Shown piece after piece: positions 5,772 to 6,469 of a stretch of 64,000 nucleotides of DNA (the stretch's first letter is position 1; the number at the start of each line of letters is the position of its first letter). Position numbers and translations under genes: made by a program. The DNA is from a virus, in the IMG/VR virus record IMGVR_UViG_3300045988_124399, positions 49,128-113,127 of that record. One strand, 5' to 3'. The notes under the pieces are model-generated. The model ran no database searches and was not told the origin of the DNA. It saw nothing but the letters and a program-made list of their open reading frames with translations.

Positions 5772-6469
5772 TTATCTAAATGGATTTTTCCATCGTCGAT
5801 TAATTTCCTCATAGCCTTTTTTAGGAAAGTATAAAACTTCACCATTTTTAAAAGTTAAATTATCTTTATTCATTATTTTAATTTGATTTAAATTAATAAT
5901 TAAACTTGGCGGGATAAAGACAAAATCTGGATGATAAACTAAAGTTCCTATATAATTTTCAAAAGAAGTTTTTAAAGTTTTACTATTTAGAATTTCATTT
6001 TCTAAATGACAGCACAAATTTCGTTTTTGAATATCAGCATATAATACTTTATTTAAATCAATTTTTACTTCTCCATTAGGAGTGTCTAAATATTTATATT
6101 CGCGTCTTTTTTCTTCTCTAACTTCATGTAAAATAGAAAAAATTTTTTCTTTATTAACAGGTTTTTTGACGAAGTTAAATGCCTTTACTTCATAAGAAGC
6201 TACTCCATAATTTATTTGGGAGGAAACAAAAATTATTTTTCCAATATACCCATTTGTTCTTAAAAGATGAGCTATTTCAATACCATCCATTTTTTTGAAT
6301 ATAATCCCTAAAAAGATTGCATCATAATCAATATTAGAATCAATTAATTTTCCAGGATCAGTAAATTTATATACATATCCCGGCAAATTAAATTCTTTAA
6401 AATACTGATTTATTATTTCTTCTAATGGAAGATTATGATTATGATGAACATGAATATGAGATGCCAACG
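5772..6469 (-). CDS. LytTR-family DNA-binding response-regulator-like protein. The receiver domain is degenerate (phospho-acceptor Asp replaced: FLGI).
   Basis: C-terminal LytTR fold motifs (KIDLNKVLYADIQKRNLCCH...FVFIPPSLIINLNQIK). TTG start. True TAA stop at 5772. Confidence 0.65.

Follow-up and report, generated by a model that had tools for sequence, protein, structure and literature searches.

The open reading frame (ORF) on the minus strand at 5772-6467 of the window, by which we mean the whole stretch of 64,000 nucleotides of viral DNA that was analysed, is very probably a 5'-truncated remnant of a gene for a regulator with a receiver and a LytTR domain (REC-LytTR), one that has probably lost its function, and in related phages the intact gene probably belongs to a module of the kind modelled below. 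This interpretation rests on comparison with about 30 related phage contigs. Compared with one of these, L001, the window is collinear at about 92% identity, except for one missing segment that reaches into the regulator gene. The features of the region are as follows.

5317-5727, plus strand: holin gene, convergent with the regulator gene, with 1 in-frame TAG (L001 orthologue in phrog_13712, E 6.7e-38)
5726-5769, both strands: bidirectional hairpin terminator common to the holin and regulator genes, with a 19-pair stem and a T-run on both strands
5772-6427, minus strand: REC-LytTR regulator remnant, which covers residues 22-238 of P0001 (the intact protein, 238 aa) and includes the stop codon
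5790-6068, minus strand: divergent LytTR-type DNA-binding domain, complete (ORF residues 134-226; Pfam score below the gathering score)
6129-6329, minus strand: receiver-domain remnant from β3 to α5 (ORF residues 47-113; Pfam Response_reg above the gathering score)
6427-6428, no strand: deletion junction, where L001 7427 is joined to 10062 and L001 7428-10061 (2,634 bp) is absent
6428-6467, minus strand: pseudo N-terminus made up of MASHIHVHHNHNL and the initial base of codon 14; the TTG start is fortuitous and lacks a Shine-Dalgarno sequence
6425-6715, plus strand: 3' remnant of the 181-aa fifth operon gene, 96 codons with 2 in-frame TAG codons, start deleted
6708-7028, plus strand: HExxH metallopeptidase-like gene, last of the operon, 106 aa, 1 TAG
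7012-7057, both strands: second bidirectional terminator, at the end of the module, having AAAAAAATAAGGGA in common with the first

The full region is present in 14 of 16 IMG/VR relatives and in several ENA/Logan contigs. What the window has lost comprises the 5' half of the 181-aa gene and four whole genes (140, 293, 82 and 148 aa), that is, 4.5 genes of a divergent six-gene operon together with the operon promoter, as well as the divergent intergenic region of about 240 bp with its promoters and a paired CACTT direct repeat. The regulator gene itself is deprived of its first 61 nt; with these went the start codon and the first 20-21 codons, among them a conserved in-frame TAG, and at the protein level strand β1, the loop of the acidic pocket and the beginning of α1. 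The microhomology at the junction amounts to 1-2 nt, and the deletion would stem from illegitimate recombination. The six-gene operon (L001 6826-9757) is conserved across the phage family and is absent from the window except for 6425-7028. Its first gene encodes a Q/P-rich 148-aa protein and contains 7 TAGs; the other products are a protein of 82 aa, one of 293 aa that is rich in Gly, Asn and Cys and has a hydrophobic segment, a β-rich one of 140 aa (phrog_20016), the acidic 181-aa protein and the HExxH peptidase. The operon proteins match only PHROGs of unknown function (21718, 16490, 20016 and 1233), and a comparison of the deleted ones with Pfam gave no family.

The position of the junction accounts for the His-rich N-terminus that an earlier sequence-only reading had singled out as a property of the regulator. 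This segment is not ancestral; it consists of sequence from the neighbouring gene, read in antisense and fused to the regulator frame by the 2,634-bp deletion at 6427|6428. Window positions 6428-6467 correspond to L001 7388-7427, within the 181-aa gene, rather than to the 5' end of the regulator, and ORF residues 1-13 are the antisense of the acidic stretch DYDYDEHEYEMP encoded by the truncated gene. The translation of 6425-6715 in turn matches the C-terminal half of the product of L001 7139-7684, and in the annotation of L030 the same remnant of the fifth operon gene was called as a 96-aa gene. An extension of the ORF to 6743 by TAG readthrough was considered and rejected, since the added part is antisense to conserved coding sequence and has no homologue.

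The gene at 6708-7028, which is flanked by the remnant of the 181-aa gene and the terminator, had been taken for a divergent ImmA-like gene that the regulator might control. Its product contains the motif HELTH and matches DUF2268 with 24.8 bits (threshold 23.6), while the L001 orthologue belongs to phrog_1233 (E 1.4e-14). The ImmA-like assignment is not supported, as Peptidase_M78 stays below the cut-off (21.1 bits, threshold 22) and the two neighbouring ORFs scanned for an ImmR-like repressor partner (the 6425-6574 remnant and 7158-7427) gave no significant Pfam match. Nor is the gene a divergent target in its own right: it is the last gene of the six-gene operon, left without the promoter and the first 4.5 genes, and an HExxH gene occupies the same position in L001, L008 and L027.

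The intergenic region that is missing from the window carries, in L001, two 11-of-12 sigma-70-like promoters toward the regulator and one toward the operon. Upstream of the intact regulator, GACACTTTT and TTCACTTAC occur once per locus with 11-12 nt between them (11 nt in L001), and a third repeat, GACACTTT, overlaps a -35 element in L001, where the repeats lie at 9850-9910. Among the loci compared, these promoters and repeats are confined to the intact ones. In the 75%-identical lineage of L002 the repeat pair has 1 mismatch in 18 bases and a different spacer, and in distant relatives (about 32% identity) TCACA-type repeats stand 21 nt apart beside the -10 element of the regulator. LytTR proteins are expected to bind direct repeats of about 9 bp that stand in pairs, 12-13 bp apart, close to the promoters under their control. 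L001 and L002 each have a single pair of CACTT with a spacing of 19-23 nt, located at the regulator in either case, and the 64-kb window has no such pair; a scan for degenerate pairs (spacers of 10-13 nt, at most 3 mismatches) gave a single match in each intact locus, whereas the window and the deletion variants had none. The check for LytTR boxes upstream of phage promoters that had been proposed for the window thus yields nothing within its 64 kb, the only candidate pair having been deleted.

With no recognisable promoter or ribosome-binding site, without the central strand of the receiver and with no candidate target within 64 kb, the remnant would be unexpressed or non-functional, and it is on these grounds that we infer the loss of function. 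The receiver half is unlikely to fold, because β1, the central strand of its sheet, is missing. The 218 remaining regulator codons contain neither stops nor frameshifts, and no in-frame TAG occurs in 5772-6427; since these leftover codons are still clean, the pseudogene appears to be recent. The sequence-only reading had proposed a phage LytTR regulator that acts independently of phosphorylation. This is reasonable for the intact relatives, but the window copy has lost the promoter, the start and the box pair. We consider it improbable that the ORF still works in this manner from TTG 6467 or from Met60, with a LytTR domain that, its receiver being damaged or absent, would act constitutively on promoters of the host or on distal ones of the phage. 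All 231 codons are open, the LytTR domain is complete and isolated LytTR domains such as the C-terminal domain of AgrA (PDB 4g4k, 4xqj) bind DNA, and a 172-aa product, starting from Met60, is present in the ENA annotation; yet a Shine-Dalgarno sequence is found ahead of neither TTG 6467 nor ATG 6290, β1 is gone, and the native promoters were deleted along with the sole box pair. The promoter-like hexamer pair at 6467-6438, a weak sigma-70-like sequence and the only such match on the strand of the remnant, lies inside the start of the ORF and so cannot serve the TTG; promoter-like matches around the remnant are, moreover, fewer than in shuffled sequence. Further target sites could exist in the roughly 118 kb of the genome outside the window. 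The conservation of the His-rich segment as antisense of a coding sequence, and the natural variants in which more or all of the gene is deleted, which mark it as dispensable, argue against a working regulator.

Such variants are found in several of the related phages. The deletions, in L001 coordinates, are the following.

Window, L030 and L036: 7428-10061
L041: 7450-10109
L040: about 7045-10130
L024: 8944-10562
L031: the whole module

Judged by their different breakpoints, these five deletions are independent, and all of them take the intergenic region and the 5' end of the regulator. The first four show microhomology of 1-4 nt, whereas in L031 the recombination site is the AAAAAAATAAGGGA sequence common to both terminators. 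The two terminators that bracket the module share AAAAAAATAAGGGA...TCCCTTATTTTT, and in L031 (8560-8640) recombination between them has cleanly excised all seven genes. Regulators disrupted by smaller changes also occur, with a frameshift in L020 and, in L007, both a frameshift and a TAA near codon 23. The natural occurrence of five deletions and of disrupted copies implies that the module is dispensable, and possibly it is counter-selected in some settings.

These variants also bear on whether the deletion in the window could be an artefact of assembly, with the real genome carrying an intact gene and operon, which we regard as very unlikely. The deletion is known from a single assembly of one sample: outside the window the exact junction occurs only in ENA scaffold ZEEV15-1_SAMEA3664527_METAG-scaffold_42 (181,800 bp), whose sequence shows 100% identity with the window over a 14.5-kb stretch that includes the junction, and searches of IMG/VR and of JGI metagenome contigs gave no match to a 28-mer across the junction. 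The shortness of the microhomology could likewise be held against a genuine event. However, the different deletions in L024, L031, L040 and L041 come from other samples and indicate that the interval is truly deletion-prone, the junction is free of repeats that could mislead a de Bruijn assembler, and both flanks are collinear with the relatives.

The identity of the truncated gene is clear from its family rather than from the window sequence alone. The frame at 5772-6467, with a TTG start and a product of 231 aa, is the sole ORF that fits the gene described earlier; later in-frame starts are a TTG at codon 28 and an ATG at codon 60 (position 6290). Response_reg (PF00072) was recognized by Pfam on residues 47-113 with E 4e-8, covering positions 42-110 of the 111 in the profile, as compared to 14-109 in an intact relative. 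LytTR (PF04397) was matched on residues 134-226 with E 5.6e-4 and an alignment over profile positions 4-97 of 98, and NCBIfam gave only weak similarity to LytR and BtsR. The HMM search that had been suggested as a check therefore placed the receiver above its gathering score (33.8 against 30.2 bits) and LytTR slightly under it (20.5 against 22.6 bits). The LytTR features that had been called clear are real in the sense that family profiles and fold support the domain, but the description was overstated for the window sequence by itself.

The closest homologue, P0001, is 95% identical to the window protein, and at the nucleotide level window 6427-5120 and L001 10062-11366 are 93% identical (blastn). 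P0001 matches phrog_8810 over its full length (E 1.5e-24). An AlphaFold2 model of P0001 (118 homologues, pLDDT 90) has a (βα)5 receiver, with β1 at 7-12 and α1 at 16-32, followed by a β-rich C-terminal domain. Foldseek ranked full-length ComE first for this model (E 1.5e-13), and target-normalised TM-scores of 0.72-0.80 were obtained with the LytTR domains of AgrA (4g4k, 4xqj) and Bacillus cereus (3d6w), the value for AgrA 4g4k being 0.80. When a profile of four sequences was compared with the PDB, the receiver half alone was matched; recognition of the LytTR half needed the fold search and a profile of 55 sequences, which aligned with full-length ComE (4cbv) over positions 2-235 (E 8.5e-17). 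Among the 55 sampled relatives, Response_reg was detected in 47 and LytTR in 28, the best LytTR match having E 4.5e-17. A profile search returned 313 homologues, mostly of 234-242 aa and many of them on contigs of 100-330 kb, while an exhaustive HMM search gave 131 matches at E<1e-30 and 9,723 at E<1e-10, forming a continuum into ordinary LytTR regulators. By tblastn the window ORF found only LytTR-type regulators with 22-28% identity, encoded on unannotated faecal phage contigs, and a megablast of window positions 1-20000 against the INPHARED phage collection gave no match. The gene order around the intact regulator is the same in TAG-recoded phages of about 110-197 kb and is preserved down to about 32% protein identity. 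Judged by the family profiles and by the predicted fold of its intact relative, the window ORF is a homologue of receiver plus LytTR regulators, and the earlier designation as a LytTR-type response-regulator-like gene stands. LytTR domains usually carry an HRS or HNS motif, and the PPS of this family and the LytTR score under the Pfam gathering threshold might be read as signs of a chance frame or an unrelated protein with spurious LytTR likeness, but this is refuted by the LytTR matches within the family, the hundreds of full-length homologues, the profile match to full-length ComE and the Foldseek matches to the AgrA and B. cereus LytTR domains, and deserves virtually no credence.

The substitution at the phosphorylation site is genuine. 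Gly54 of the window ORF (AIFLG, nt 6306-6308) aligns with the phospho-acceptor Asp, as can be seen from DAIFLGI in the window next to IFLDV in the receiver domain 6m8o and IFLDI in MrkE (2qv0). Over 118 family members the acceptor column contains D in 111, G in 4, N in 2 and T in 1, which, together with the 6m8o alignment, bears out the earlier observation of Gly at this position. Compared with this distribution, the loss of Asp is, as far as sequences tell, a derived trait of the sub-lineage to which the window belongs. The conserved Lys (CheY K109; FVKKP, with the VKKP motif) is present in the window ORF and in 110 of the 118 members, and at the Ser/Thr site (CheY T87) the window has FVSS, with S in 76 and T in 6 of the 118. 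The receiver was therefore rightly described as degenerate with respect to the acceptor, but it is also truncated, with β1 and the start of α1 gone. For 16 intact copies in the window's lineage dN/dS is 0.12, with 0.08 for the C-terminal domain, a ratio by which the intact copies are under purifying selection; since the value is also low for the receiver (0.16), the Gly-bearing pseudo-receiver is by this measure functional in the intact genes. Two residues past the acceptor position, codon 56 (6299-6301) encodes Ile in the window and Thr in all 16 intact close relatives (GITFKK to GIIFKK), and this is the sole lineage-specific change that was noticed in the remnant.

The intact regulator begins with a canonical N-terminus, in which MKVIKIFIVGVCDNSD[TAG]QNDSLEE is conserved and which in P0001 is given as MKVIKIFIVGVCDNSD-Q-NDSLEEIIN. 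Codon 17 is TAG in all close relatives, and because of this in-frame TAG a full-length regulator can be made only if TAG is read as sense. Additional TAG codons occur in the regulators of L002 (three), L008, L025 and L027, and L011 and L021 have a TAG in place of a CAG (Gln) codon, consistent with the reading of TAG as Gln. This TAG/CAG polymorphism in relatives suggests that the window phage also reads TAG as Gln. The annotated ATG of the intact regulator (L001 10001-10030) is not preceded by a Shine-Dalgarno sequence, and the motif AAGGTGAT lies within codons 2-4; the family consensus begins only where L001 has codon 6, an ATT. Translation may thus truly start at this non-canonical ATT, or else at the ATG without a Shine-Dalgarno sequence.

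For the intact phages, a scheme can be envisaged in which decoding of TAG as sense would allow production of the regulator and so set its timing, after which the protein would bind the candidate CACTT repeats some 20-21 bp apart, sustain its own expression and switch on the divergent six-gene, TAG-rich late operon. In the lineage of the window the intact protein would not need phosphorylation for this, given that Gly stands in for the acceptor Asp. The binding to the repeats, the control of the operon and the TAG-gated timing are what we infer from the arrangement of the genes and their sequences. As to the earlier suggestion that such a regulator could tap quorum-sensing or competence circuits of the host, what was seen in the intact relatives would rather speak for autoregulation and for control of the divergent late operon than for host quorum-sensing circuits. 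Since most members keep the Asp, yet a histidine kinase was found neither in the neighbourhoods examined nor among the 20 largest ORFs of the window (where GyrB alone has HATPase_c), a host histidine kinase could act on them. A correspondingly wider reading, which we put forward tentatively and consider rather unlikely in full, is that the regulator and the operon form a conserved amber-gated late accessory module, that a host kinase could phosphorylate its Asp-bearing members, and that the window's lineage first lost the Asp and then suffered the deletion. If true, phosphorylation by a host kinase would let the phage read a host peptide signal.

The best-characterized systems for comparison are ComE of Streptococcus pneumoniae and AgrA of Staphylococcus aureus. 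Like these, the intact relative combines REC and LytTR domains in about 240 aa, and ComE (4cbv) is the best match of the phage family both by profile and by fold. The ComE and AgrA boxes resemble the CACTT repeats of the phages, whose candidate sites are also direct repeats with a CAnTT-like core and a periodicity of about 20-21 bp beside the regulator's own promoter. Unlike ComE and AgrA, the present regulator is phage-encoded, has no adjacent histidine kinase and carries, in the window's lineage, Gly for the phospho-Asp; the phage family furthermore has PPS, its members contain in-frame TAGs, and the window copy is 5'-truncated. Atypical response regulators that act independently of phosphorylation include ChxR, HP1043/HsrA and JadR1, which are cellular proteins with OmpR/PhoB-type output domains. 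Like them, the window's lineage keeps the receiver fold with the acceptor Asp replaced, but here the gene is of phage origin, the output domain is LytTR, and 111 of the 118 members of the wider phage family retain the Asp. Phage homologues are already catalogued as phrog_8810 without functional annotation, and the window copy differs in being devoid of the N-terminal part. Components of Agr and LytTR systems in phages provide a precedent for phages "listening in" (PMC3901668). The agr3 locus of phiCDHM1 contains agrB, agrD and agrC and has no response regulator, and LytTR-domain genes have been noted in the Pseudomonas phages Lu11, PMG1 and D3 (PMC3901668). The present family does encode the regulator, whereas genes for a kinase, a peptide or its processing are absent from the neighbourhoods examined.

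A further comparison is with recoded gut phages in which TAG is reassigned to Gln (code 15), for which a model has been proposed in which recoding gates the translation of late genes (Borges et al., bioRxiv 10.1101/2021.08.26.457843); the terms "response regulator" and "two-component" are absent from the text of that study. With these phages the genome of the window shares a low GC content (32% in the window) and an abundance of in-frame TAGs in genes for structure and lysis, in keeping with that model. Between 2 and 5727, the genes on the plus strand are long only with TAG readthrough (486, 570, 206, 378 and 141 codons, each containing 1-6 TAGs), and several minus-strand genes contain TAGs as well. 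TAG is also used as a sense codon at 7062-8114, 21531-23297 and 40167-41540, all on the minus strand, with up to 8 in-frame TAGs per gene. No suppressor tRNA gene was found in the 64-kb window, where the tRNAs present are those for Cys, Lys, Gly and Leu (taa) at 61.6-63.7 kb.

On the far side of the module lie genes for a RuvC-like protein, dUTPase, NrdG, NrdD, guanylate kinase and DNA polymerase III alpha. The gene is thus located between a tail/holin block and a nucleotide-metabolism/replication block, in agreement with the structural/replication boundary recognized earlier. The nrdD gene of the window (10206-12557) is uninterrupted and has 2 in-frame TAGs, whereas in the relatives L028 (1813-4738) and L031 (2536-5428) it is split by a GIY-YIG homing-endonuclease gene. 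Elsewhere in the window, 57099-59627 (minus strand) encodes an 842-aa protein with Major Vault Protein domains (MVP_shoulder E 2e-21, Vault_3 E 9.5e-8), adjoined by a gene for a DUF2828 plus DUF7788 protein at 60077-61612 (minus strand), a pairing that is unusual for a phage. Four genes (43695-45104, 51276-52781, 57099-59633 and 60059-61624) have a GC content of 42-45% as compared to 32% for the window, and one of them encodes an SPFH/Band_7 protein (43707-45104). Across from each of the four, the other strand has an open frame of almost the full length of the gene, which is probably a by-product of codon composition.

Regarding annotation, the ORF in the window should not be listed as a functional regulator, and the features that made it look odd are corrected by recognizing it as a deletion remnant with an N-terminus that is an artefact of the junction. 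The REC-LytTR regulator itself emerges as part of the syntenic gene core in a widespread clade of phages with recoded TAG (contigs to about 110-197 kb). It appears to be amber-gated and stands beside paired direct repeats, in a module that has repeatedly been deleted, with five independent alleles. The module may therefore serve as a test case for how recoded phages time the expression of late accessory genes, and for why such a module is sometimes selected against.
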